Shown here piece by piece: positions 2,522 to 30,429 of a stretch of 64,000 nt of DNA. The DNA comes from Candidatus Omnitrophota bacterium (GTDB lineage Bacteria; Omnitrophota; Gorgyraeia; Tantalellales; Tantalellaceae), in NCBI GenBank assembly GCA_024277375.1, contig JAJRVD010000041.1, positions 2,323-66,322 on the forward strand, in the 5' to 3' direction. The notes under the pieces were generated by a model that was given only the letters and a program-made list of their open reading frames with translations, did not search any database and was not told the DNA's origin. Every line of letters starts with the position of its first letter. Within the stretch, counting starts at the first letter, position 1. A program made the translations under genes and the position numbers.

Positions 2522-2791
2522 TTAGGGGTTAAAGTCTATTTTTCCGGTTTCCGGCAGGTTCTTCTTTGCTTCTTCAAGTTTCTCTCTGGGATCCCTTTGT
2601 GCTTCTCTTCTTCTTTCGGCGTCTTTTACTTGTCTTTCCAGCCGCGCCATAAACCGTGCTCTCTGCTCCTCGCTCGCCTTTGTTTGCGCCTTTTTCAAGT
2701 CTCCTGACACCAAAAACACTACCGCTCCGACCACAACCAGGACAATAACGGCAAATATGATCAATTCTTTTTTTGTTCTTCCTTCTATCAC
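2522..2791 (-). CDS. Small membrane-anchored hypothetical protein (one TM helix plus a charged coiled coil)
   Basis: 89-aa ORF with a hydrophobic stretch IIFAVIVLVVVGAVVFLV followed by an R/E-rich tail. Confidence 0.45.
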   Translation of the reverse strand: MIEGRTKKELIIFAVIVLVVVGAVVFLVSGDLKKAQTKASEEQRARFMARLERQVKDAERRREAQRDPREKLEEAKKNLPETGKIDFNP

Positions 2792-3183
2792 TGTTTATTT
2801 CCTTCGTTTTTTCTCCGCAGCCATTTTTTATGCAAGAAGTTAAATATCCATCCTTTTTCCTCTTTTTTAAGCTTTATTCCCATTTTATAATGTTGTCCGC
2901 CGAATCGATCGCCATCGCTCAGCCACACGATCTCACCTTTCGCTATCGCGGGAGCGCTTCCATCCGGGGACATCAATTCGATCTCCACTTCGACACCTTC
3001 CGGGATCGCGCTTTTACACGTAATCCCCAACCCTTCTTTGCTGAAGTTGTTTAGTTCAACTTCCGGTTTATTCGTTATTTTGGGGCACAGCCCGTTCAAC
3101 GCCATATTAAACCGTTCGTGTTCCCTGTATTCTTTCATAATACGCTCCCATATAACTTCATGATCATGTTTAGCTTCTTTCAT
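2788..3183 (-). CDS. PilZ-domain (c-di-GMP binding) protein
   Basis: An RxxxR motif (REHER) and a D/NxSxxG motif (NFSKEGLG) occur at PilZ-like spacing in a 131-aa protein. Confidence 0.5.
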   Translation of the reverse strand: MKEAKHDHEVIWERIMKEYREHERFNMALNGLCPKITNKPEVELNNFSKEGLGITCKSAIPEGVEVEIELMSPDGSAPAIAKGEIVWLSDGDRFGGQHYKMGIKLKKEEKGWIFNFLHKKWLRRKNEGNKQ

Positions 3184-14808: not shown

Positions 14809-15048
14809 ATGTACAAAAAAAAGGCCGAATCTGCGGCGGAAACAAAAAAACTTAAAAAAAGCGGTAAGATCACAACAATAGAAGTTGAAGATGTTACCAC
14901 TGAAAAAGCGATGCGCAAAGCGTTAAGAGCTCTGGGAGCCAAGAAGAAAGAAGTAAAGATCGAGGTTCTCAAGGAAGAGCAAAAAGGTCTTTTTGGAATG
15001 AAAGGCGCGGAGCTGGCGAAGATAAAAGTAACACTGAAAAACCAATGA
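14809..15048 (+). CDS. jag: Jag/KhpB N-terminal domain protein (Jag_N only); the KH and R3H domains are absent
   Basis: ITTIEVEDVTTEKAMRKALRALGAKKKEVKIEVLKEEQKGLFGMKGAELAKIKV matches Jag_N. The gene ends one nucleotide before the convergent gene at 15049. Confidence 0.6.
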   Translation: MYKKKAESAAETKKLKKSGKITTIEVEDVTTEKAMRKALRALGAKKKEVKIEVLKEEQKGLFGMKGAELAKIKVTLKNQ

Positions 15049-17271
15049 TCAAGAAGGCACCGGCTCTTCTTCCTCCTCTTGAATGATTTCAATAAAAGTA
15101 TTCACTATCTCAGGGTCAAAATGCGAGCCTGAAGAGTCTTGAATGATCTTTATGGCTGTTCCCGTGTCAAAAGCTTTTCGATAAGGCCGATCAGAAGTGA
15201 GAGCTTGATAAACATCGGCTAACGCGATAATACGCGCCCCGCGCGGGATCTCAGAACCCGCAAGCCCGCAAGGGTACCCTCCCCCATCCCACTTTTCGTG
15301 ATGGTAATAAATTAGAGGAATAATATCCTGCAGAAAATGTATGGGACGCAAAATGTCAGCGGCTATCTGAGGATGTTTTTTTATCTCTTCGAATTCCTGT
15401 TCTGTGAGCTTGCCGGCCTTTAGAAGGATCTTATCGCTTATACCCACTTTTCCCAGGTCATGCAACATAGCTCCCTGTCGGATGCGTTCTATTTCTTCCG
15501 GAGGAAGGCCCAGTTTTTTGGCGATCTTTAGCGCGTAACGAACGGTTTTCTCCACATGGTCGCCTGTATAATTGTCTTTCATCTCGATAGTTTTGGCAAA
15601 AGCAAAAATAGCTTCCGCCGAGCTCTGGTTTTCCCTCTTGGTAAGACGCTCCAGCTTATTGGCGAGACTTTGCATGTTGTCCGTGTCGGAAGACATGGTC
15701 CGGGAAGACCGCTTTTTTATGGAGGAGAGATCATAAACTCTATTCCCTCCGTCTGACTGGGCTTTGTGCAGTATCTTTTCGGTTTTGTCTATTAAGCTGG
15801 ATCCCTTCGAGGCCTTGTCTTCAGGATATGAAGAGACCCCCACACTTAACCGTAACTGCACAGTATGTTGTTTGTCTCCGAATTTATAGAAATTTACCGT
15901 TTCCAGGATCCTTTGAGTCAGCGCCATAGTGATGGTTTTGTCTATGCGCGAAGAGATAACCACAAATTTTTCTCCTTCAAGGCGGGTGATAACATCATAC
16001 TTGCGGAACGTTTGCTGCAGGTATTCCGCGAATTGTTTTAGCACCAGATCGCCAAACTTTCGGCCATAAAGATCGTTAATTGATTTAAAATAGTCTATGT
16101 CAAGCATGACTACCGATAACGGGTATCCCATCCTTTTTGCCCGATCAAACTCGGCCTCAATGGATTTTTCAAGGAAACGATGATTATAAAGACCGGTAAG
16201 AGGGTCTATTAAAGCAAGCTCTCTCAGTTTTTTATTCGCGGCGATAAGGTCTTTCTGGAATTGTCTTATTTGTTCATCGAAATTTCTACGTTCAGTAACG
16301 TCTTCACCGGAACTCAGGCATCCGATGACTTTCCCGTCGGGGTCTTTAACGGCGGCGTGGCGCCAGGAGATCGTCCGCTCTTCCCCGCTTTTTGTTAAAA
16401 CAGGAAGCTCAAAAGAATCAAAAGTTTTGAAGCGACCGGAAAGCACTTTGTCAAAAATTTCCGTCATCGGTTCCTTCAGTCTTCGCGGAACAAAATTAGT
16501 AAACCAGTTTTTGCCTACGATATCTTCCCTTTTTTGCCCCAGGATCATGCAGCCGCAGTTATTGATCCTTTCAACTTTTTTATCCGGCCCTATCACAACC
16601 ATCAAAACATCAGCTATATCAAAATAAAGCCTCACCTTGTCGCGCTCCTCTTTTAACGCGTTTTCGGTGCGCTTAAGTTGTGTGATATCTTTGAAAACTC
16701 CTATAATATGCGCTAACTTGCCCTTTTCATCCTTTATCATGGAACCCGTGACAATTAAGGGGATCTTTTTGCCTTGTTTCGTAAGCGCGATGGTCTCAAA
16801 TTTTTTCATTACGCCGGAACGCACCATATCTTCCATTGTTTTTATGTGGGAAGAGAGCTCTTTCCGGGGAAAAAGCTTAAAGATAGACTTGCCCACTATC
16901 TCCCGGGTGGTATAACCCCAAATTCTCGTGAAAGCGTTGTTTATGCTGGCGACTTTCGCGTCAGGCGTCATTACGATCACGGCATCAGCTATGGCATTAA
17001 AGTACTGTGCCGATTTCTCGAGATCCTCGTAGGACTTAAGGTTAACGGGGGTTTTAGTGCTTTTTGAAGAGCGTAGGTACTCATTAACAAGCGCATGTAG
17101 TTTTATGTGCCCGAGTTTAGACTCGATCTTGGCCGCGGCCACCTGAGCTTCGACTTCCTTCAAGACGGCTTCAGCCTCTTTTCTTGAAGCGCTCACAGTT
17201 TCGCGCAGCCGTTTGCCGTTTATGCGGTAGTCAATGAAGTATTTGCCGTTTTTTTTACGTAAAGTAGCCAT
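15049..17271 (-). CDS. Multidomain signalling protein: integrase arm-like N-terminus, 2-3 PAS domains, a degenerate GGDEF domain and an HD-GYP c-di-GMP phosphodiesterase
   Basis: The HD-GYP motif is intact (MLHDLGK...HHEKWDGGGYP). The GGDEF signature is degenerate (RLEGEKF). The N-terminal sequence is KNGKYFIDYRINGKRLRETVSASRKEAEAVL. Confidence 0.88.
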   Translation of the reverse strand: MATLRKKNGKYFIDYRINGKRLRETVSASRKEAEAVLKEVEAQVAAAKIESKLGHIKLHALVNEYLRSSKSTKTPVNLKSYEDLEKSAQYFNAIADAVIVMTPDAKVASINNAFTRIWGYTTREIVGKSIFKLFPRKELSSHIKTMEDMVRSGVMKKFETIALTKQGKKIPLIVTGSMIKDEKGKLAHIIGVFKDITQLKRTENALKEERDKVRLYFDIADVLMVVIGPDKKVERINNCGCMILGQKREDIVGKNWFTNFVPRRLKEPMTEIFDKVLSGRFKTFDSFELPVLTKSGEERTISWRHAAVKDPDGKVIGCLSSGEDVTERRNFDEQIRQFQKDLIAANKKLRELALIDPLTGLYNHRFLEKSIEAEFDRAKRMGYPLSVVMLDIDYFKSINDLYGRKFGDLVLKQFAEYLQQTFRKYDVITRLEGEKFVVISSRIDKTITMALTQRILETVNFYKFGDKQHTVQLRLSVGVSSYPEDKASKGSSLIDKTEKILHKAQSDGGNRVYDLSSIKKRSSRTMSSDTDNMQSLANKLERLTKRENQSSAEAIFAFAKTIEMKDNYTGDHVEKTVRYALKIAKKLGLPPEEIERIRQGAMLHDLGKVGISDKILLKAGKLTEQEFEEIKKHPQIAADILRPIHFLQDIIPLIYYHHEKWDGGGYPCGLAGSEIPRGARIIALADVYQALTSDRPYRKAFDTGTAIKIIQDSSGSHFDPEIVNTFIEIIQEEEEEPVPS

Positions 17272-17765
17272 GGTGTCCTGCTCCTTTCAGTGCCCAAAGT
17301 GCCCAGAAAAAACACACCACAAAACCTCAAAATGGACAATACAAAGTGTACCACAGTTTTTCCCAATAGTCAAAATTAACGCAAAAAAAAGCAACAAAAT
17401 TTTAGCGATTTAAAAAAAACAAAATACGCAAAAAAAACTCAAAAACATAAAGCCATAAAACCTTTGGTTGTAAGGTGTTATGCTTGCAGGAAAAAGGAGA
17501 GGCCACGGCATGGGAGTGCCCATATTTTGGGCACCGTCTAAAAAAGCAGGCAAAACCCGGGAAAACTTTGAGATATAAAAAAAGAGTTTTTGGATACGTG
17601 GAAAAGGAGCACAAAAGAGCCAAAGAACGGGAGACCCAGGGGCACTAAAAGATTTGTGCCAGGAAAAGCAAGATATCCCACCTGTTGAAAACCTGTGCAT
17701 AACTACATAACATTTTTAGCTATAATGAGTTATGCGTGTAAAACAAAACGCTGTTTTTTCAATCA

Positions 17766-17882
17766 GACCGTGTCATAATGTAGGGGCTTGATTCATCAAG
17801 CCCGTTATATCGGGTTCGATAAATCGAACCCCTACTATGTCTTGTATGCGGCCATCCGCAAAACAAATTACGACACAGCTCG
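17766..17882 (+). mobile_element. MITE-like repeat, copy 3
   Basis: GACCGTGTCATAATGTAGGGGCTTGATTCATCAAGCCCGTTATATCGGGTTCGATAAATCGAACCCCTAC...AATTACGACACAGCTCG. Confidence 0.85.
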
Positions 17883-18083
17883 AATGACGAAAGTTCCGTT
17901 TTGTAGGATCCTTTTTGAGTTTCAAGAACCCCGCATGTTGAGGGCCGAAAAATCTAAAGACGGTTACGCTGCTGTCAAAAAAGTGAATAGCCAGAGTTTT
18001 TGGTATAGCGAAGCAAGTTTCCGTCCGCTTTGCCTTCGGCAAATGCTCAAGGAGCCTTTTTGACCGTTTCACAGGCCAAAAAG

Positions 18084-18099
18084 GTTTCCACGTGGAAAC
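18084..18099. promoter_or_regulatory. parS: parS-like centromere site, a perfect 16-bp palindrome GTTTCCACGTGGAAAC
   Basis: One-symmetric-change variant of the consensus tGTTTCACGTGAAACa, about 400 bp upstream of parA. Confidence 0.6.
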
Positions 18100-18280
18100 T
18101 CTTCTTTGGGCAGTACAAAGGGCCCGGTGAATTCCTACCAGGTTTCCCTGTACGGAATCCCGCACACATCCTTTCCCGGATATAAAACAAATTCTAAGGC
18201 CGACCTCGCACGGGATAATACACAGCATCTTTCGCCACAATAAAACCATCAGATGTCATCCTGAGCGAGGCCCGATTGCA

Positions 18281-18396
18281 GACTGTGCCATAATGTAGGG
18301 GCTTGATTCATCAAGCCCGTTATATCGGGTTCGATGAATCGAACCCCTACATTATGTTGTATACGGCCATTCACGAAACGAATTACGACACAGCCC
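18281..18396 (+). mobile_element. MITE-like repeat, copy 4; supplies a spurious N-terminal extension to the parA ORF
   Basis: GACTGTGCCATAATGTAGGGGCTTGATTCATCAAGCCC...AATTACGACACAGCCC. Confidence 0.85.
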
Positions 18397-18497
18397 GCTT
18401 GTCCCGAGCGAAGCCGAGGGAAAGGGCCGAGTCGAAGGATCTAAAAACGCGAGATAAATCATTGACACAAGAACACCCGTGTGATATAGTGATTTCG

Positions 18498-20403: not shown

Positions 20404-23400
20404 ATGAACAAACGCTATATCACACACAAAATAACTATAAAGATCATATCCACTCTCGTGGTGTGCCTGTTTATGGTGAACTCGTTCGCCTGGGCAATGC
20501 CGCGTCAAATCAATATTTCCTCAACAAAGACCCTTCAAGCCGAGCTGATGACAGCAAGGATATTGAAAAACATAGACATCCAATATAGAGATACCGCCGC
20601 GGTAGAGGTAAAAACTATCCTTACAATGCTGGGAAGAGGAGATCCGATCCTGAACATAAACGCGGCATTAAGCATCGCCCATGGCGAAGCTGAAAAGATG
20701 TCAGATCCTATCTTGGAAGTAAAATTCCTTGATGACGTAGGAGCTGCCTCCGGCAGCGAACAAAAAAGCGACGAAAGAACGGTTGAATTAAGATACAAAG
20801 ACAAACCGAGGGAAGTACCGATCTGTCGAGTGATCAGGTCAAAGAATGGCAGAATATGGGTCGAGGATATCCTTGAAGAAAAACCCTTTGAGGATTTATT
20901 CGGCGAGATATTGGAACAGGTGGACGAAGAAAACAAAAGAAAAGCCGGGAAAGAGCTGGAGACAATTATCGCGATGGCGCTGGCCGCGGAACCCTATCCG
21001 AATATAAATGAGGCGTTAAATGGTTTTGCCGCCGCCAAAGAAAGGGGCAAACGGATATTAGAAATAAAGTCACCGGTTTACAGAACGGACGGAACGGTCG
21101 CGATTGAAATCGGATTTTTAGGGATGCCGCATGGAGGGCCTAAGTATAGAATTATTCTGAAGGGGTGCCGGGACAAGGAAGACCTGGCAAGAGAGCCCAG
21201 TAAGATAGAAATAAAAAGAATAAAATTTTATGAAGCTTGGCGGGAGTATAGAGTAGAGAAAAAATATCCGCGCTATGCGGATAGAAGCGGATACGGATTC
21301 ATAGGTGGTCCCAGGGGAGACATCGCGGAGGCATACAGAAAAGGGTTAATTTTCAAGATGAAGGAATCCGGATTGAGCGAAGATGAGAAGCGTTTGGTCT
21401 CAGACGCACTCATCCGCGTAACCGAAGGATCTATGCGGGACCGTAAAGAGTTTTTCTCGGAAGGAGAGATAGCCGAGATTTTGTGTTACAGCGATTTTAA
21501 CATAAAAGGTCTCATTTCAAAAATAATAAAGGAAAAGAACAAATACGAGGCGGTAGTTGACGAGAAAGGAAAAAGGCTCTTTAGCGAAAAGCAGATAAAC
21601 GCTCTTGTTCTTAGAAGATTCGCGCCATTAAGCTGGATCGAGAATCTCCGGAATGGAGGGCTCTCTAAAGCAGAGGCCGTTGAATGCGTGAAAAGATGGG
21701 CGAGGCCTAAAGAAGAATGGAAAAGGCTTGAGCCGGTCAGAGATAAGATAGTCGCGGGAAAATGGTTTAAGAGAAGAGAAGCGAACCGCATAGTTACAAG
21801 ATGGAAGGACGCGGAAGAAAAGGCCAGAGATATTAAAGATATCTGCGGGACTCTGATAAAAGACGGACTTTCAAAGTCAAGCGCTCTTGGTATTGTTTTG
21901 CAGTGGAAGAATCCGAAGAAAAAGTGGAAGAATACACTTGAACCTCTCCTTAACAGATTAGTAAAAAAGGGAATACCCCGAGGAGTAGCGTTTCAATTGG
22001 TTATTAAACACAGGGACCCGGAAAAGAAACTGGAAGACATACAGGATGACGTCGAGATGCTAAAGGGAAAGGGGCTTACAGAGTCAGCCGCGATGCGCTT
22101 TGCCATAAGGCACGCGAATGTGGAAGACAAATGGAATGAAATGATAAAAAACAGTAAAAAGATCAGGAAGCAAGGGTGGAGCCGGCGGCAGGCGATGATC
22201 ATAGCATACAAGTATAGGGACCCGGAAAACGAGGGAAGAAAAAGAACGATAGTATATGAGCAACTTATTAAAGAGGGGATACCCGAAGAAAGAGCGAAAG
22301 AATGCGTCATAAAATGGACTCACGCCGCAGAAAAGATCAAAGCGGTAGAAAAAACAACAAAGCTCATCGAAGAGAAGTTGCGGGGCAAGGTGAAAAAAGT
22401 TTTCGTGTGGGTGTTAAATAACAGCTATGGGAATCTAAAAAAGAAATTACGGTATAGATATAAGCAAACAGGTGACGAAATCGCGAGGCTACTTGAGCCT
22501 TTGCGCGAATACGAGGAAAAATACGGACAAGAAAAGGAAGACAACTTTGAGATCATAGAGAAAGGAGCGAGAAAGAAAGAACAAGGCGAACAAAAAAAGC
22601 CAAAAGCGAAGAAGAAAGAACGAAAAATAGAAACATTTACGGTAGACATGGAGGACGGGATATATGATCCAAAAGCAATTATAGGGACGGAAAAAAAGAA
22701 AAAGAGAAAGCTAGCTAAAAGTATGGCGGAAACAGAAGTGGAAGTTTTTAGTCCGGAAGAAGGGAAGAAGCACAAACAAGAAATGATCAGACATCTGACG
22801 GAGGTGGTACTTGCTGAAATCGCGGACGACTCGACGCGTATCGCGATAAGAAACAAAAAAGTTGTAGGGTTTGTGGAATTCGCTTACAGGACAGGAAAAC
22901 AAGAGGCACAAATCAAGAGAATTACAGTCTCCGAAGAAGAGCGCGATAAAGGTGTCGGGCACAGCTTGATGGATAAGGCGGTTAACGCGATTCTTGAACA
23001 CGACCCAAACAATAACAAAATACAAATAAAAGCGCCAACAGGAAAAGAAGGGTTCTATCGGGAGAAATATCTTCCGGGAAGAGAAAAAAACAAAACAACG
23101 AACGTGCCGTGGTACGTGGAATGGCATGCGCCGGCAGGGTACGCCGGCGGCGTCCGTTTTGATGTGACGGTATATAAGAAGAAACAAGAAACTTCCATAA
23201 AGAAGCAAAATGCTCCTCCTCGGAATAAAGAGGGTTTTACCTCTGTGTGTACGCTTGAAGTGGAGGGCAAAATATTTGTAGTACGTCAGCTTGTTCACGA
23301 GAAAAATAACAACGGATATAGTTATAAAGTAAGAGATATTGGGGTTTACGAGGTTAAGAGCGGGGGAAAGGAAATTTTCGCGGGCGGTATTTTCTATGTC

Positions 23401-26400
23401 ATTCCGCCAAGGGGACCAAGCACGGCTTTTACTTCACGAGACTATGGATATGGTTTTCTGAAAGAAACAATGAACGGGTACCCGTTCTACATAGAACCGG
23501 AGTACCGGAGGGGATATCATCTAGGGAAACTGTTAATGGCGATAGCGGCTCAATCTATGAAGAATATGGATGGCCTGACGGATTATTCGTATAAGACACC
23601 GACTGATGATGTTGAAAGGGTTTTGCGCAAGATTTTTCCTGAATACCCGGGAGGCGGCGAGGTTGATCTCGAGGGAGACGACAATGCAGGGGAGATATTG
23701 ACGTGGTTTGTAGAAAACGCGGGAATGGTTGTTTCCGCTGAATGGTTGATTTCCGGTAATAAAACTAAAGACAATGCAAGTACCCGTCAGATCGGCAAAG
23801 GACCAAAAGTCGATAACGTCGACCTCGAAACAAACCAGGCGACCGCAACAGATTCAGAGGGACGTGAACACACGCTTACTTTAACGGCTAAAGGAAAGGC
23901 AAAGATGCCGAAGCTAAAAGTGCTGACAGAAAGCATAGACTACGAGAACGAAGACCACAGGAAAAACATCCTTACCGTTTTAGATCTCTTAGAAAATTCC
24001 CTTTCTCGGGAACTACCGGACTTGTATACCTACCCAGAACTTATTGAAGACCTTTTCGGGTTTATCCCACCCGATGACTCAACAAACATAATAGCGTTAC
24101 ACGAAACAATGGAAGCCGAACCGATAGCGCGATTCCATGAGATCGCGCATCATTACATGGAGCGCGGGGCATGGAGCATGGAGATGAAGGGCTATATGCT
24201 AACGTTAACTATAAACGGGACAGAGCAGAAACTGGATGTCTCCCGGGCCAGAAGAAACTTGGCGGACGAAAAAGAAGATTGGATCAAGTGGACGGATGAC
24301 GAGCTTAATCAGGAGAAAAACCGGCACTATTTATTAAGAATACTCCAGAGAGCGATATTTAGAGAGAAGGATCTGGCGCTGACAAAGAAGATCAAACAAG
24401 AACAAAAGAGACGCGAAATATCGCGTGAAACGGTAAAGAGAATGTTGAGGCTCGAGCAGGAAATAATGTCGTATAAGTCGCCTGAGATCCGCGTGGCCGC
24501 TATACAGGCGTTAGGCGCGATATATTTAGCGCTTATCAAGCAGGGGCATGATGTCGATCTAGCGATTTTTGAGAAGGAAATACAAAGCACGGAAAGTATA
24601 CTTTGTAATGCTTCTATCAATGTAATGGGGGAACTTTTCTTTACTCTTGCGGGACAAGGAAAAAAAATTAACTTAACCGTAGTAGAGAAAGAATTGATTA
24701 ACGGAGATAAAGTGGATCTGCCGCGTTTGGTGGAGTGGTTACGTAAGATATATCCGGAAATTATCATAAAAGGACACTCCTTCAACATGAGGAGTATTTT
24801 TGAAGCTATGTGTGAAAGCGATCCTATATCAGCTAGTGTGATCAGACCGTTGCTGGTTGATGCTATAAAGCTCTACATTGATAATGGGAAAGAGATTGAT
24901 ATTACGTATTTGATTGACAAAATGGGAAAAAAGGATTTTGAGAACATCGAAGAGACGGTAGAAACAATAAGAGATGTATATGTTTTGTCGGCGGGCGGAG
25001 GTGAAGATATAGATATAACATGCTTAAAACAAATGGAAACAATACTCTTTGATGGGGGATTGTTTGAGAAGAGTTCGGAAGGAGAAGAAGGATATAGCGA
25101 ATATAGGATAGTTAGAGCGCTGGTGATGGAAATAGGGGACATACACAGCGTTTTTATCGAAAACGATATTAACGTAGAGATAACGAACATTGAAGAAAAT
25201 TTATCTAATAAGAACATGAAAATTCGTTATAGTGCGTTGGAAATAATGGAGGATATTCTTATCGCGCGTGCGCAAAAAAGAAGAGAGATCAATTTGGAGA
25301 AAATTAAAAAAATGAGAACAGATCCGGAAAAAGGAATAAGAGACGCGGCAAGTAAGACAATAAAAAGAGTAGAAAAAATACTGGAAAATAGCTACAAAAA
25401 AGCAACTATAAACAAAAAGCAACAAGAGGAAGTTGATGGTGGCGAACATGACGAGATAGTAAGAAGAATGGAAAAGGTGTACGGTAAAGATGTGATAAAT
25501 GACAAAACAAAAATAAGAACAATAAAGACCGAGGACGGGACGATGGTTTCCTCAATAACTCATTATCCCCGCGGGGAAGAGGATGAGGATCTTGTTCGCG
25601 AAGGCAAAGTCGAGGAAGACGCGAAAAAAATCATTACAAAAATAAAAAAAGGAAAAAACCCCAGTCTGAACAAACTAACAAAGGCTTTATTGGATGAAGC
25701 TTTTAATGTTAATCACACGGCCCTTCAAGCGCTGTTAAGGGTTTGTGCTGCTATCTTTGAAGCGGGAAAAGACGTAGATGTAAATATTTTCAAAAATGGT
25801 TTAGTTGCCAAAGTAGAAGTCACGGAAAGCATACGAGAAGAAACCGGGGACATTGTGCTTCAGCTATATGAGCTTTATTGGGAAGAGGGTCAGGAGGTCG
25901 ATACGAAGATGTTGAAGGACATTCTGACTCGAAGTAAATATAAGTATGCGCATGATGATCTGACAAATACGATCGCTAAAGGATTTAAATACTTCAACAG
26001 TGACGACCGGGAGTTCTTTGTGAAGGTCTTTGGGGGGTTGACGCAGGATGAGGATCGATGTATCAGTGAAGCCGCCGTGAACTCCCTAGAGCTCATCATT
26101 GGAGATCTTTCTGGAGAGGAGAAACAAGGGGCTATAAAAGAATTCGAAAAAAGATTGGGAAACATGACATTTATCTCTAAAGTAAAAGCGATAAAGAGTC
26201 TAGGTAAAATATATACGTCAGATTTTCTTAAAGGGAAAGAAACAGATATTATTAAAAAGCTTGGTAAATACGTGAATGACGAAAAAGCGGAAATAAGGGT
26301 AAGCGCTATCGTCTCTATAGGAGAGTATTTTATAGCCCTTGTGGAAGATGGGCAAGTCGTTGATTTGGATATATTAGAGGAAAAACTGGAGGACAAAGAT

Positions 26401-27300
26401 GCAGTAGTCAGAGGGAGGACCATAATAGAGCTTAATAAAATTTATCTTGCTATGATCGAAAAAGGCATTGTTCCTGATGTGTTTTTATTTATAAAAAAGC
26501 TAAAAGACTCTGATGAATTTGACTGGGGGGGGGAATGGGAGGATGGCCCGACCGTTACCAAGCTCGAAGATGGCGCATATTTGTACCAAAGCGAAATACA
26601 AGTAAAAACTGCCGCTAAACATGCTTTATATACAACATGTACGACTTTAGCAAGGGGAAAAATAAATTTTGATAAAAAATTATTAGAAAAAAGACTTTTT
26701 GACGATGATAAATCTTTTTGTGAGGATATTGTTTATGTTTTAGGTGAGATCTATGCCGCTCTTGCTGAAACCGACCAGGATATCGACATGGACGAATTGG
26801 AAGGATATTTGTTCCATGAAGAAGAAAGCTTCCGCAATTTTGCCGCGTACGCTTTAAGTCGGATATATGAAGTGCAATCTGAAAAAGAAAGACAGGGGAT
26901 AGTTTCCGCGGAAGACCTTGAAAAATACCGAGTATGGAAAAAGGCAAAACTACCGCTTATCGAAAAAGCGATAGATGATTATTTTCTTTCCGGCGGACCT
27001 GAGGAATATATAGAAGACCTTAAGCTTCGGGCGGATGAAGCAATATACGAAGGATTTAACACAAGAGACGATAAAGAGATGACCGCGGCTTTTGTGGGAG
27101 TAAGGAGCCATGGGATCAATATCAGTTTTAATGAGTTTGAAGAAAGGATAAAGGAAACAAAAGAGTGCAGCCAACACTTGTCTAATAAAGACGAAAAGTT
27201 TGGGCAATCTCCGAGAGATCGCTTTGAAGATCTTTTTAAAAAAGAAAAAAGACTTAAGCCTATAGAAGTGAGCGCGCGGGATTCGCGTGTTGTGGATTAA
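20404..27300 (+). CDS. Giant (2298 aa) Lys/Glu-rich protein with a signal anchor, an unknown N-domain, about 7 tandem 36-aa Trp-containing repeats, two degenerate GNAT-like folds and a C-terminal HEAT/PBS-lyase-like repeat array
   Basis: Uninterrupted 6.9-kb ORF. The signal peptide is ISTLVVCLFMVNSFAWA. The tandem repeats have the form GLSKAEAVECVKRWARPKEEWKRLEP... GNAT motif A-like sequences include RITVSEEERDKGVGHSLMDKAVNAI and YIEPEYRRGYHLGKLLMAIA. HEAT-like units include SPEIRVAAIQALGAIYLAL. All antisense ORFs in this span are short. Confidence 0.85.
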   Translation: MNKRYITHKITIKIISTLVVCLFMVNSFAWAMPRQINISSTKTLQAELMTARILKNIDIQYRDTAAVEVKTILTMLGRGDPILNINAALSIAHGEAEKMSDPILEVKFLDDVGAASGSEQKSDERTVELRYKDKPREVPICRVIRSKNGRIWVEDILEEKPFEDLFGEILEQVDEENKRKAGKELETIIAMALAAEPYPNINEALNGFAAAKERGKRILEIKSPVYRTDGTVAIEIGFLGMPHGGPKYRIILKGCRDKEDLAREPSKIEIKRIKFYEAWREYRVEKKYPRYADRSGYGFIGGPRGDIAEAYRKGLIFKMKESGLSEDEKRLVSDALIRVTEGSMRDRKEFFSEGEIAEILCYSDFNIKGLISKIIKEKNKYEAVVDEKGKRLFSEKQINALVLRRFAPLSWIENLRNGGLSKAEAVECVKRWARPKEEWKRLEPVRDKIVAGKWFKRREANRIVTRWKDAEEKARDIKDICGTLIKDGLSKSSALGIVLQWKNPKKKWKNTLEPLLNRLVKKGIPRGVAFQLVIKHRDPEKKLEDIQDDVEMLKGKGLTESAAMRFAIRHANVEDKWNEMIKNSKKIRKQGWSRRQAMIIAYKYRDPENEGRKRTIVYEQLIKEGIPEERAKECVIKWTHAAEKIKAVEKTTKLIEEKLRGKVKKVFVWVLNNSYGNLKKKLRYRYKQTGDEIARLLEPLREYEEKYGQEKEDNFEIIEKGARKKEQGEQKKPKAKKKERKIETFTVDMEDGIYDPKAIIGTEKKKKRKLAKSMAETEVEVFSPEEGKKHKQEMIRHLTEVVLAEIADDSTRIAIRNKKVVGFVEFAYRTGKQEAQIKRITVSEEERDKGVGHSLMDKAVNAILEHDPNNNKIQIKAPTGKEGFYREKYLPGREKNKTTNVPWYVEWHAPAGYAGGVRFDVTVYKKKQETSIKKQNAPPRNKEGFTSVCTLEVEGKIFVVRQLVHEKNNNGYSYKVRDIGVYEVKSGGKEIFAGGIFYVIPPRGPSTAFTSRDYGYGFLKETMNGYPFYIEPEYRRGYHLGKLLMAIAAQSMKNMDGLTDYSYKTPTDDVERVLRKIFPEYPGGGEVDLEGDDNAGEILTWFVENAGMVVSAEWLISGNKTKDNASTRQIGKGPKVDNVDLETNQATATDSEGREHTLTLTAKGKAKMPKLKVLTESIDYENEDHRKNILTVLDLLENSLSRELPDLYTYPELIEDLFGFIPPDDSTNIIALHETMEAEPIARFHEIAHHYMERGAWSMEMKGYMLTLTINGTEQKLDVSRARRNLADEKEDWIKWTDDELNQEKNRHYLLRILQRAIFREKDLALTKKIKQEQKRREISRETVKRMLRLEQEIMSYKSPEIRVAAIQALGAIYLALIKQGHDVDLAIFEKEIQSTESILCNASINVMGELFFTLAGQGKKINLTVVEKELINGDKVDLPRLVEWLRKIYPEIIIKGHSFNMRSIFEAMCESDPISASVIRPLLVDAIKLYIDNGKEIDITYLIDKMGKKDFENIEETVETIRDVYVLSAGGGEDIDITCLKQMETILFDGGLFEKSSEGEEGYSEYRIVRALVMEIGDIHSVFIENDINVEITNIEENLSNKNMKIRYSALEIMEDILIARAQKRREINLEKIKKMRTDPEKGIRDAASKTIKRVEKILENSYKKATINKKQQEEVDGGEHDEIVRRMEKVYGKDVINDKTKIRTIKTEDGTMVSSITHYPRGEEDEDLVREGKVEEDAKKIITKIKKGKNPSLNKLTKALLDEAFNVNHTALQALLRVCAAIFEAGKDVDVNIFKNGLVAKVEVTESIREETGDIVLQLYELYWEEGQEVDTKMLKDILTRSKYKYAHDDLTNTIAKGFKYFNSDDREFFVKVFGGLTQDEDRCISEAAVNSLELIIGDLSGEEKQGAIKEFEKRLGNMTFISKVKAIKSLGKIYTSDFLKGKETDIIKKLGKYVNDEKAEIRVSAIVSIGEYFIALVEDGQVVDLDILEEKLEDKDAVVRGRTIIELNKIYLAMIEKGIVPDVFLFIKKLKDSDEFDWGGEWEDGPTVTKLEDGAYLYQSEIQVKTAAKHALYTTCTTLARGKINFDKKLLEKRLFDDDKSFCEDIVYVLGEIYAALAETDQDIDMDELEGYLFHEEESFRNFAAYALSRIYEVQSEKERQGIVSAEDLEKYRVWKKAKLPLIEKAIDDYFLSGGPEEYIEDLKLRADEAIYEGFNTRDDKEMTAAFVGVRSHGINISFNEFEERIKETKECSQHLSNKDEKFGQSPRDRFEDLFKKEKRLKPIEVSARDSRVVD

Positions 27301-27306
27301 GGCAGT

Positions 27307-30300
27307 GTGGATACGGATGTTTTTGACAGGCATTTTTCAAAATTAGTTACGATAAAAAACAATATAGACAGTTTAGAGTGGTTAGAGGAGCTTCCGGGGA
27401 AAAAGTTTACACTTGAAAATGTTTACCACAAGTTTAAAAAACAACAGGCGGGCATTCCCGAAAAGGAAAATTCCCACTTTGTTCTTCCCGGTGAGAGGAA
27501 AAGAATAAAAACGGAATTATTAGAAGACAGAAAGATACTTTACCGGGTATTGTTCAGAATGTTAAAGGACAGGTTGAACGACAGGCAAGCAAGGGAGAAG
27601 TATCTGATTTTAATGAGAGATCTGGCCATAAGCGACAGCCTGTTAAGTTATTCTTTGGTGGCGGGCATGAGGTCCGAATATATGGAGAAACAAATAAGCG
27701 CGTTCAGGTTTCTTTACGAGGAAGACAAAAACAACTTAATTGAAGACGTTATGAAGGGAGAGAAAGAAAGCACTAAAAAGAAGCTAACAAAAACGTTAGC
27801 AGAAGGGTTTGATGAATTGTCCCGGGAAATATATGAAGAGATAGGGAAGATAAGGATCACCGTGATCAAGGGAAAAGAGAACAGGTATCGCCTGGTTCCG
27901 GCAGGTTTTTTAAGCTTGTTTAGAGGAAGAGCTGGGATATTTGATTGTTCTTTTAAATGTGAGCAGGGAGGAGAAAATCCTCTTGTGCGAGCCATTCATG
28001 AAGACAACAGTTATTATCTTGTATACAAGGGGAAAGAACTGAAAGGGTATGTAGGATTATGTTTTGGAAAGAACGAGAAAGGGGAAAGAATATTAACAGT
28101 AGACACTATTCAATCCCCCTCACTTGACGGAGAAGAGCTCTTAATGAACCTGTTTAAGGCCTTGGGCGTTGTGGCGGAAGAAAAGGGATGCATAGGTATA
28201 GCGCTTCCCGGCAACTTACGGCCGGATGCGATAGTATCTTTCAATTTTGATAACAAAAGAACCATAATGGATATGGATATATATAAGAATGCTCCGTCTG
28301 TTTATGTGGAACCGATAAACAAAAAAACGTGGGATAGTTTTTATCCGGAGTACGCGGAAGATAAACACGATTCAATGTTCTTTGGCAAGTTCAGATTAAT
28401 AACGCTTGAGATGTTGGGGCTTGCGGATGGATCGAGAAAAAGATGTGAAAGAAAAATAGACCTGGAAGACGGAATATATAACGCCGGAGAAATGATATCG
28501 GATAAGAGGATAAGCTTAAACAAGCTTTGTGTAGAGTTGACGAAGATAGAGATCGAGGCGTTTCGACCCGGAAAGAGGCGGAGCGAAAGATATATTAAAT
28601 TACTGGCTGGGACGTTTGTTGGGAATATCGAAAGAGATATTGCGCTTGTAGCCGTCAAGGACGGAGAGATCGTGGGCTTTATCCTGGCCGGAAAGAACGA
28701 TGGAGGGCTAGATCAAATAAAAGGGTTTGCGGTACGCCGGGGTGATAGGAGTAGGGGAATAGGGACGGGTCTTTTGGATAATGCGGTTGAGGCGTTTTTA
28801 GGGCACAGAGAGAGCTGTTCTTTTACTCTTCGGCCGTGGCCGGACGCTGAAAGTTTCTATACCGAAAAATATTTTCCATCACGAGTTAAAGGAAAAAGCA
28901 CAAAATCATGGTGGTTGGGAGCGGAGGCAGACCCCACAGAAAACAACACTTTAAAAGTGACCGTTTACAAAAAGGAAGAGATAGAACCGGGTTCGCTGGA
29001 CGAACAGTTGGAAAAAACCAAAGACGGAGTGTATGACGTAGAGTCGATCGTAAAAGAAAATGAAAATATTCTGCGGGAAGTGGTTGGAAGGTTATGCGTG
29101 ATAGCGGCGAGGGGCATAGGGTCGGAGAAAGTAAAAGCGGAAATATTAAGGAACGTAAACAACAAGGGTGTTTTAATGACGGTGAGAGAAAACGCAATAG
29201 TCGGGTTTATAGAATTCGGGTTCAATCCAGCGGAGCAGATGACAATAACGAATATTTTTGTTGACCAAGAGGAGTTATTTAACGAAGTGGGCTCCGAGTT
29301 AATGGATGAATTTGTAGAAGAAATTTTGGAAAAAGAAAATATCAATGACTTTAGGATTATAGCGGATCCGGACACGAGAACGTTTTATTCAAAATACATC
29401 AATAAGTGGAAACAAGAAAAAAGCAAAATCACCGCGATCAAAATCAGATTTAAATTATATAAACGGGGATGCGTAAAAATAAACGTTAACATTGAAGAAA
29501 GAATAGAGGAAGCAAGCTGGGGGGAGAGAAGAAAAAGAAAAGCGAAAAAAAGAATAAAAGAAGTTTGCCGGGAGACCCTAAAAGCTGAAAGAGAAAGGAA
29601 AGAGACAATAAATTCCGAGGAAGGAACAAAAATAAACATAATTACGGATGTGTCGCTTTTGACGGAAGAAGATCTGGAAGATAGCATAACGGAATGGGCA
29701 TATTTGATATTAAAATACAAGGAACACAAAAACGTAAACTTCATATTTAAACAGCTCTATCTGGATTATGGCGAAAAAAACATAATGTCCGACGCGTTGA
29801 TCCGGGATATTGTAAACGCCGTCAAGCCGAACGAGTTTGTAGCCGGCCTTCAAGCGCGTCTCGCGGCCCTGAACGAGGTATATACATTGGGGCTTGATAT
29901 CGAGAAGCTGTTTACGGAGAGGATAGGGGACAGCCTCTTTTTGCCCAAAAAGAGGCTATCCCCTAAAAAGTCCCCTGAAAAAAGTCCCGTAGAAATATTG
30001 ATATCTTCTTCCGAAATGTTCAAGTGGATCGAAGCAAAAGAGAAACAGCTGAAAAAAGAGCTTATAAAAGATAATCAATATCCTGTGGCTATGGAAGGAA
30101 GCACGGTGAGAGGGCAGAATTTAGCGGCGCTTTGGGATTTTCAAGGCGCGATGGATATGGCAATGGTAAAGGCGGAACTCGTTATAGCCAAGGAGAATGG
30201 TAATTTGGAAGAGACCGCCGAGAGGCTGTCGGAGCAGGTTAAGAAACTCTATGAGATCATGGACAAGAAAATAGAGGATATAGACGAAAAAACCCTTCAA

Positions 30301-30429
30301 TACATGATAAATGAACACTCCAAACTCGAAATGGCGATAGAAATGGCCCTCCCGGCCATCGGTCGAATGTCATACAAAGAACGTCAGATCCTGCACGGCT
30401 TCACTCAAGATGTCCTCCGCAACGTATAA
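27307..30429 (+). CDS. Large (1040 aa) multi-GNAT protein, paralogous over one module to the preceding giant protein
   Basis: A clear GNAT motif is present: IVGFILAGKNDGGLDQIKGFAVRRGDRSRGIGTGLLDNAV. Two more degenerate GNAT-like segments follow. The segment FYTEKYFPSRVKGKSTK...KVTVYKKEE parallels FYREKYLPGREKNKTTN...DVTVYKKKQE in the giant protein. Starts 6 nt after the upstream stop. Confidence 0.85.
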   Translation: MDTDVFDRHFSKLVTIKNNIDSLEWLEELPGKKFTLENVYHKFKKQQAGIPEKENSHFVLPGERKRIKTELLEDRKILYRVLFRMLKDRLNDRQAREKYLILMRDLAISDSLLSYSLVAGMRSEYMEKQISAFRFLYEEDKNNLIEDVMKGEKESTKKKLTKTLAEGFDELSREIYEEIGKIRITVIKGKENRYRLVPAGFLSLFRGRAGIFDCSFKCEQGGENPLVRAIHEDNSYYLVYKGKELKGYVGLCFGKNEKGERILTVDTIQSPSLDGEELLMNLFKALGVVAEEKGCIGIALPGNLRPDAIVSFNFDNKRTIMDMDIYKNAPSVYVEPINKKTWDSFYPEYAEDKHDSMFFGKFRLITLEMLGLADGSRKRCERKIDLEDGIYNAGEMISDKRISLNKLCVELTKIEIEAFRPGKRRSERYIKLLAGTFVGNIERDIALVAVKDGEIVGFILAGKNDGGLDQIKGFAVRRGDRSRGIGTGLLDNAVEAFLGHRESCSFTLRPWPDAESFYTEKYFPSRVKGKSTKSWWLGAEADPTENNTLKVTVYKKEEIEPGSLDEQLEKTKDGVYDVESIVKENENILREVVGRLCVIAARGIGSEKVKAEILRNVNNKGVLMTVRENAIVGFIEFGFNPAEQMTITNIFVDQEELFNEVGSELMDEFVEEILEKENINDFRIIADPDTRTFYSKYINKWKQEKSKITAIKIRFKLYKRGCVKINVNIEERIEEASWGERRKRKAKKRIKEVCRETLKAERERKETINSEEGTKINIITDVSLLTEEDLEDSITEWAYLILKYKEHKNVNFIFKQLYLDYGEKNIMSDALIRDIVNAVKPNEFVAGLQARLAALNEVYTLGLDIEKLFTERIGDSLFLPKKRLSPKKSPEKSPVEILISSSEMFKWIEAKEKQLKKELIKDNQYPVAMEGSTVRGQNLAALWDFQGAMDMAMVKAELVIAKENGNLEETAERLSEQVKKLYEIMDKKIEDIDEKTLQYMINEHSKLEMAIEMALPAIGRMSYKERQILHGFTQDVLRNV

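Follow-up and report, generated by a model that had tools for sequence, protein, structure and literature searches.

An integrase arm-type domain at the head of a PAS-GGDEF-HD-GYP protein of Omnitrophota: a candidate DNA-binding c-di-GMP phosphodiesterase

Introduction

The Escherichia coli phosphodiesterase PdeL, which combines a LuxR-type helix-turn-helix with an EAL domain, binds its own promoter and activates itself only when the level of cyclic di-GMP (c-di-GMP) is low (PMC5052742). Both known examples of such trigger phosphodiesterases carry EAL domains, and HD-GYP proteins have been mentioned only as a possibility (Hengge 2016, PMC5052742). Here we describe a gene in a 64,000-nucleotide stretch of DNA (hereafter the window) from a Candidatus Omnitrophota bacterium (GenBank assembly GCA_024277375.1, contig JAJRVD010000041.1, positions 2,323 to 66,322 of the forward strand). 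An open reading frame (ORF) on its minus strand, at positions 15049-17271, encodes a protein of 740 amino acids (aa) in which an N-terminal domain of integrase ancestry is fused to a PAS-GGDEF-HD-GYP signalling protein. We propose, with a probability of roughly 0.55, that a PAS-GGDEF-HD-GYP gene captured the 5' end of an integrase gene along with the arm-type sites there, and that the product would be a DNA-binding enzyme regulating its own gene.

Four kinds of described proteins are close to this one in some respect. Like PdeL (YahA), it has an N-terminal domain of a predicted DNA-binding type on an active-looking c-di-GMP phosphodiesterase and, just as PdeL binds its own promoter region, it has candidate sites in its own promoter and leader. 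It differs from PdeL in having an arm-type beta-sheet domain and an HD-GYP domain instead of the LuxR-type helix-turn-helix and the EAL domain (Pfam finds no EAL domain in it), and in possessing two additional PAS sensors and a degenerate GGDEF domain. This domain content fits a PdeL-like trigger phosphodiesterase, for which the protein is a candidate only. With tyrosine integrases of the lambda Int type it has in common the homologous residues 1-82, the predicted fold of this head and a TGCCCA/TGGGCA repeat just upstream of the gene but, lacking complete core-binding and catalytic domains, it should be unable to recombine DNA. Residues 83-740, with 40-58% identity to hundreds of proteins, many of them named Candidatus Omnitrophota, make it an ordinary member of the PAS/GAF-GGDEF-HD-GYP proteins of Omnitrophota and other phyla, except that none of the other 254 homologues fetched carries the arm head and that its GGDEF signature reads EGEKF where nearly all the others have GGEEF. 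Lastly, the AP2/ERF and ApiAP2 factors of plants and apicomplexans have the same three-strand-plus-helix fold as arm domains (one of the best fold matches is 6sy0), although these factors are eukaryotic and not fused to second-messenger enzymes, and the likeness is one of fold.

Results

Integrase ancestry of the N-terminal head

The protein begins with MATLRKKNGKYFIDYRINGKRLRE. The original prediction, made from the sequence without database searches, had recognized in this segment the arm or AP2-like DNA-binding domain of tyrosine integrases, an assignment that profile and homology searches bear out. When the first 110 residues were scanned alone, Pfam placed Arm-DNA-bind_2 (PF12167) on residues 4-45 with 25.5 bits (cut-off 22). 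The PHROG integrase profile phrog_1 matched residues 4-92 (E = 7e-8) and tblastn with residues 1-82 retrieved the N-termini of true integrases (E = 1e-8 to 1e-14). A metagenome scan with a profile of the N-terminus yielded three tyrosine integrases of 335-365 aa (loci L082, L083, and L084) and no others; a protein search with a two-sequence profile returned a single Candidatus Omnitrophota integrase, P0151, which has a full-length cluster mate of 337 aa, P0153; and a viral scan found one integrase with an excisionase-like gene ahead of it. No match came from a word-indexed protein search with the 91-aa N-terminus, and nothing relevant emerged when the sequences of the PDB were searched with this segment or a profile of it.

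The related integrases consist of the arm region followed by a Phage_int_SAM_5 core-binding domain, which starts at residues 56-62 and spans about 56-153, and a Phage_integrase catalytic domain. Aligned with P0151 and the integrases of L082, L083, and L084, the window protein is homologous from residue 1 to about residue 82, that is, over the arm domain, the linker, and the first core-binding helix, after which it continues with a PAS N-terminal cap. The basic beta-sheet residues R16, R21, and R23 are invariant in this alignment, integrases included. An AlphaFold model of residues 1-52 (three sequences; predicted local distance difference test score 81.6) contains three strands (residues 3-7, 10-17, and 20-27) and a helix (30-45). 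Among 350,542 PDB chains, Foldseek ranked first and second the arm-type domains of the HPI integrase (3jtz) and of a P4-like integrase in complex with attP (3rmp_C), with template modelling (TM) scores of 0.58-0.68 (for 3rmp_C, 0.68 with a root-mean-square deviation of 2.8 A over 52 columns); the next match was a Plasmodium AP2 domain. These fold matches are consistent with the arm-domain assignment without being decisive, and they join the profile searches in pointing to integrase arm domains and not to an unrelated fold.

Beyond the head, Pfam detects no Phage_integrase domain in the protein, residues 83-740 being occupied by PAS, GGDEF, and HD-GYP domains, and the core-binding (SAM-like) domain is not complete, as homology stops after its first helix. 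Since the catalytic domain and the full core-binding domain are both absent, the protein, judged by its domain content, is not an integrase. A catalytic remnant or att-like repeats, which the original prediction had thought worth looking for nearby, did not turn up: the 64-kb window contains neither a further copy of the head nor an integrase or transfer-messenger RNA (tmRNA) gene, and upstream of the gene there is neither a tmRNA nor an att remnant.

The head could also be an artefact of a wrong start, the real start codon lying further downstream and the integrase-like segment being untranslated. In-frame GTG or TTG codons do exist at codons 26, 37, and 44, the last of them with AAGGAAG upstream, but this explanation is very improbable: AGGAG stands 9 nt ahead of the ATG at 17271, the next ATG is codon 101 and would cut into the first PAS domain, and the initial MATLRK and the following 45 residues are conserved as protein, with a low nonsynonymous divergence (dN), in the orthologues and integrases.

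An enzyme core with a degenerate GGDEF and an intact HD-GYP domain

Downstream of the head, the order of Pfam domains confirmed the PAS-GGDEF-HD-GYP layout originally predicted for the 740-aa protein (Table 1). Of the two to three PAS domains then proposed, two were recovered (PAS_9 and PAS_4) and the third was not; the TIGR00229 sensory box profile also matched. The GGDEF domain had been called degenerate on account of its RLEGEKF stretch, and EGEKF is indeed unique among 227 homologues, 187 of which have GGEEF and nine GGDEF. Because the catalytic signature is lost, this domain is probably unable to make c-di-GMP and the protein is probably not a cyclase. It has nevertheless kept, five residues before the signature, the RxxD I-site (RKYD) found in 217 of the 227 homologues, a site that binds c-di-GMP in other GGDEF domains.

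The HD-GYP domain, by contrast with the GGDEF domain, is intact, again as predicted. Its motifs HD (residues 604-605) and HHEKWDGGGYP (657-667) are complete and the expected metal-binding and motif residues are all present (H572, HD 604-605, H633, HH 657-658, GYP 665-667, and D686). Given these intact motifs, the domain probably hydrolyses c-di-GMP.

Conservation of the fusion

An exhaustive HMMER search with the full protein over 1.84 billion representatives listed the window protein itself (P0002, a singleton in the protein collection) and P0106 (locus L081), of 429 aa, which has 48% identity to it in an alignment starting at residue 1. Applied to all 257 fetched proteins, the arm profile picked P0007 (locus L085) as well and no further signalling protein; the head is absent in the other 254 fetched homologues, and none of the 120 closest homologues has an integrase-related Pfam domain. 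P0007 is 904 aa long and has the same head and the same junction, followed by PAS, a weak GAF, PAS, GGDEF with an intact GGEEF, and HD-GYP. P0106 (L081 184-1473) breaks off at residue 429, within GGDEF, with unrelated DNA and another palindromic repeat behind it, so that it is either a pseudogene or the product of a chimeric assembly. P0106 and P0007 come from uncultivated bacteria, probably of the Omnitrophota, and the neighbouring genes differ among all three fusion loci. A scan of 185,579 species genomes with a few exact peptide patterns, which was not exhaustive, recovered no head-bearing orthologue, the best match having 27% identity from residue 85 onwards. In the literature, we found no report of an arm-type domain fused to a GGDEF or HD-GYP protein.

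Finding the same fusion in P0106 and P0007 allowed us to compare its parts. In each of these two proteins, identity to the window protein is 60-62% in the arm domain, falls to 15-21% in residues 49-82, is 25-46% in the PAS domains, and returns to 60-72% in the GGDEF and HD-GYP domains. The dN values follow the same trend, with 0.28-0.30 for the arm domain against 0.82-1.23 for the linker; synonymous sites are saturated in five of six comparisons and reach about 1.9 in the sixth. As the arm domain has a high identity and a low dN compared with the adjacent linker, purifying selection acts on the head, by this pattern of divergence, to an extent similar to that seen in the catalytic domains.

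This conservation bears directly on the possibility that the head is an inert relic, left when an accidental deletion joined an integrase start to a PAS-GGDEF-HD-GYP gene and serving only as promoter, start codon, and N-terminal extension. Such an origin would agree with a junction that cuts the core-binding domain after its first helix, as by accident, with the hundreds of paralogues that function with other N-terminal sensor modules, with the rarity of the family (three members found), and with the truncation of one of them, P0106. However, the head matches the catalytic domains in conservation and is three to four times more constrained than the adjacent linker, R16, R21, and R23 are invariant also in the integrases, and the site arrays described below have persisted or even multiplied, to six in L085. 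We consider an inert scar unlikely because the head is conserved like the catalytic domains. Of the two explanations offered by the original prediction, the fusion scar therefore finds no support in the conserved head and the three-fold occurrence of the fusion, and a domesticated integrase module on a c-di-GMP enzyme fits the conserved fusion, the conserved head, and the arrays much better.

TGGGCA(C) arrays upstream of the fusion genes

The heptamer TGGGCAC occurs four times in the window (about 3.8 copies expected window-wide), and all four exact copies lie within 265 bp upstream of the fusion gene, two as a tandem pair close to the start codon and two as the arms of a palindrome (Table 1). 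Similar arrays precede the two other fusion genes. In L081, the motif is found at -70 and -60 in reverse and at -48 and -39 in forward orientation; in L085, six copies extend from -84 to -28 at steps of 10-14 bp (mostly 10-11), with one more at -175. No 6-mer other than TGCCCA/TGGGCA occurs three or more times in every one of the three upstream regions, a result that 0 of 500 dinucleotide shuffles matched. Set against the local background, the arrays of the three fusion loci have Poisson probabilities of 1e-6, 4e-5, and 7e-4. The motif was already defined when we turned to L085, which hence provides an independent test.

A sigma-70-like match would put the tandem sites of the window in the leader, between the promoter and the ribosome-binding site, and promoter-like sequences can likewise be recognized ahead of the L081 and L085 arrays, all of them being consensus matches only. 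A sigma-54 promoter was considered for the repeats and rejected, as the spacing, checked by hand, does not fit. Two A-rich 31-nt direct repeats (17379-17456), 71% identical and 47 bp apart, are situated just upstream of the promoter-like match in the window.

The repeats might instead be unrelated to binding by the fusion protein, as elements of an RNA structure in the leader or sites of another regulator; the arm domain could then bind other DNA, make protein contacts, or tether the enzyme non-specifically to the nucleoid, creating a local sink for c-di-GMP. Copies in opposite orientation in the predicted leaders of L081 and L085 can indeed pair, for example GAGCCCAAA with TTTGGGCTC in L085, and most sites are located downstream of the transcription start predicted from the promoter matches. 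In the window, however, the leader has copies in the same orientation only, so no hairpin is conserved, and further copies lie upstream of the predicted promoters. Moreover, the leader of the window gene matches none of the Rfam families, c-di-GMP riboswitches included, and the motif travels with the arm-domain subfamily, true integrases included, which an unrelated regulator would not explain. We therefore regard it as quite unlikely that the repeats serve something other than the arm domain.

Related integrases at tmRNA genes

The integrases nearest to the head, P0153 (L086) and P0151 (L087), are encoded directly after tmRNA genes (L086 6660-7240, L087 1171-1720). The tmRNA gene is a classic insertion site of genomic islands, and these two integrases look like parts of islands at ssrA in Omnitrophota. 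Between the tmRNA 3' end and the start of int, both loci carry two tandem TAATGCCCA repeats, at -48 and -36, which constitute the only close pair of motif sites in the 8.5-kb integrase locus. The ribosome-binding region is also alike, with GGAGCAGG before the ATG of the integrase in L086 and before that of the fusion gene. Since the motif is common to the fusion genes and their nearest integrases, the 5' end of the gene and its arm-type sites were probably captured together. In L083, about 100 nt past the integrase stop (approximately 1430-1465), there is a partial tRNA-like 3' end, GGTTCGATCCCCTTCGGCTCCACCA, with no full tRNA called; it is probably an att-site remnant.

Arm domains normally work within recombination complexes, as in the lambda-type integrases, and the fusion protein might act there too, competing with or assisting a cognate integrase at the TGGGCA arm sites of a tmRNA-gene island located elsewhere. 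PAS signals and c-di-GMP would then influence integration or excision, and the sites at its own gene would be inherited copies or serve a side function. The closest arm domains belong to tmRNA-adjoining integrases with the same core motif beside int, and the arm domain is under purifying selection, both of which would be expected of a protein controlling recombination. Against this stand the lack of any integrase, tmRNA, or att remnant in the 64-kb window or near the orthologues, and the fact that the richest arrays stand ahead of the fusion genes themselves, whose genomic contexts differ in all three cases. We judge recombination control as the protein's main role to be rather unlikely.

Genomic context

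The window covers a replication-origin region, with gyrA, gyrB, dnaN, and dnaA on the minus strand, yidD, yidC, and jag on the plus strand, the fusion gene on the minus strand, and parA and parB on the plus strand. Proximity to the origin was rejected as meaningful, the orthologue in L085 having different neighbours. The G+C content of the fusion gene (0.43-0.48) is ordinary for the window, and a recent foreign insertion was rejected on this ground.

The original prediction had also seen a local c-di-GMP module in the fusion gene and a PilZ gene 12 kb away. The PilZ ORF at 2788-3183 is real, with a marginal Pfam match (25.1 bits, cut-off 22.5), but the module is unsupported because the two genes are 12 kb apart across housekeeping genes (tRNA-Asp, tRNA-Val, gyrA, gyrB, dnaN, dnaA, yidD, yidC, and jag) and the arrangement is not conserved: there is no PilZ gene near the orthologue in L085, the one orthologue with a usable contig.

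Next to the fusion gene, jag (14809-15048) encodes Jag_N only (79 aa), and its TGA stop codon abuts that of the fusion gene (TGATCA), the two genes converging without a spacer. A split of jag by the fusion gene was rejected, as there is no KH/R3H remnant downstream.

The window also contains a palindrome resembling repetitive extragenic palindromic (REP) elements, GGGCTTGATTCATCAAGCCC, usually paired with GGGTTCGATRAATCGAACCC, at 11 places where none is expected by chance (Table 1). A sub-threshold Rfam match to 'mir-485' at 18289-18356 is just this REP-like hairpin. Two REP-like repeat units of 119 nt (17764-17882 and 18279-18397), 89% identical and 515 bp apart, bracket a 158-aa ORF without Pfam match (17773-18249, minus strand) in the 1-kb gap between the fusion gene and parA. 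Further along the window, two giant ORFs lie next to each other, 20404-27300 (2298 aa) and 27307-30429 (1040 aa); both contain a GNAT acetyltransferase domain and the first also HEAT repeats, but most of their length matches no Pfam family.

Table 1. Features of the fusion gene, its upstream region, and the REP-like palindromes of the window
Feature	Position in window	Strand	Basis or remark
Whole gene: arm-type domain, core-binding-helix remnant, PAS, PAS, GGDEF (degenerate A-site), HD-GYP	15049..17271	-	ORF listing and Pfam
Integrase arm-type (AP2-like) DNA-binding domain (predicted), residues 1-48	17128..17271	-	PF12167, phrog_1, AlphaFold, PDB fold matches, conservation
Helical linker and first core-binding (SAM-like) helix of integrase, residues 49-82	17026..17127	-	Integrase alignment
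PAS domain 1, residues 83-205	16657..17025	-	PAS_9 at 96-198 (Pfam)
PAS domain 2, residues 206-335	16267..16656	-	PAS_4 at 222-329 (Pfam)
GGDEF domain, residues 353-511	15739..16215	-	Pfam GGDEF, E = 2.8e-39
GGDEF A-site EGEKF	15964-15978	-	Residues 432-436
GGDEF I-site RKYD	15994-16005	-	Residues 423-426
HD-GYP phosphodiesterase domain, residues 559-722	15106..15597	-	HD_5, E = 1.6e-39, profile positions 4-170 of 170
Ribosome-binding site AAGGAG	17281..17286	-	Sequence read; AGGAG 9 nt before ATG at 17271
Two tandem TGGGCAC in gene orientation, 9 bp apart, at -25 and -34 from ATG	17290..17305	-	Candidate arm-type operator
Sigma-70-like match TTGACT-17-TG-TACACT	17345..17373	-	Consensus match only
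Palindrome GTGCCCA-AAATA-TGGGCAC (two inverted TGGGCAC), about 250 bp upstream of ATG	17516..17534	.	Motif search
REP-like palindrome GGGCTTGATTCATCAAGCCC	3551, 6406, 17784, 18299, 37641, 41656, 44335, 47634, 54926, 56318, 63593

Discussion

We propose that the 5' end of the fusion gene descends from a tyrosine-integrase gene of the tmRNA-adjoining Omnitrophota kind. The captured piece would have comprised the TGGGCA(C) array, the ribosome-binding region, the arm-type domain, and the first core-binding helix, and would have been joined to a cytoplasmic PAS-PAS-GGDEF-HD-GYP protein of a type very abundant in Omnitrophota. The resulting protein may form dimers or higher oligomers through its helical linker and its PAS and GGDEF domains, with the arm domains binding the TGGGCAC repeats in its own leader, downstream of the promoter and ahead of the ribosome-binding site, as well as the palindrome some 250 bp upstream. 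A signal sensed by the PAS domains would alter the oligomeric state together with c-di-GMP, which the retained RxxD site would bind and the HD-GYP domain would bind or hydrolyse; in this way, the occupancy of the DNA would be coupled to the level of the second messenger. The minimal circuit would be one of self-regulation and would make the protein an HD-GYP counterpart of E. coli PdeL; possibly, it also ties the integration or excision of a tmRNA-gene island to c-di-GMP. The DNA binding, the regulation of its own gene, and the coupling to c-di-GMP are steps that we infer from domain content and from the position of the repeats.

Several observations weigh against the capture of an integrase 5' end with working arm sites. 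As regards the arm domain itself, PF12167 stays below its cut-off when the full-length protein is scanned (19.6 bits) and on two orthologues (19.9 and 17.9 bits), and the Foldseek E-values (0.18-0.25) are non-significant, because the arm domain is so small. As regards the family, its small size and its truncated member count here as they did for an inert relic. As regards the repeats, it was by eye, in two loci, that the motif was first noticed, which leaves L085 and the integrase loci as the only independent tests, and L086 and L087 are near-identical and amount to one observation; the more distant integrases of L082-L084 are without a clear motif array, the inverted copies in the L081 and L085 leaders could form RNA hairpins, and the 64-kb window contains no second cluster of TGGGCAC sites.

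To our knowledge, PdeL of E. coli is the single known case of a c-di-GMP enzyme that also acts on DNA directly, and whether HD-GYP enzymes are capable of this is a question that the field has raised. Multidomain c-di-GMP enzymes with a DNA-binding module are thus already known, and what is new here is a predicted DNA-binding module of traceable integrase origin that comes with its candidate operator. Only tentatively do we suggest that this may be the first HD-GYP trigger enzyme, at once a phosphodiesterase and sensor and a sequence-specific DNA-binding regulator whose head and operators both derive from the 5' end of an integrase gene.

The fusion family provides a concrete HD-GYP candidate for action on DNA, with a predicted operator, the TGGGCAC repeats. 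It would illustrate how a regulator can arise in one step: with the first part of an integrase gene, a sensor enzyme would have obtained a DNA-binding domain and the matching cis-element at the same time. Transcription factors are held to have acquired the AP2-type fold from mobile elements and, if our proposal is true, the fusion would be a bacterial parallel to this recruitment of integrase/AP2-type domains into eukaryotic transcription factors. For the Omnitrophota, an uncultivated phylum rich in PAS-GGDEF-HD-GYP proteins, it would offer a first handle on gene regulation.

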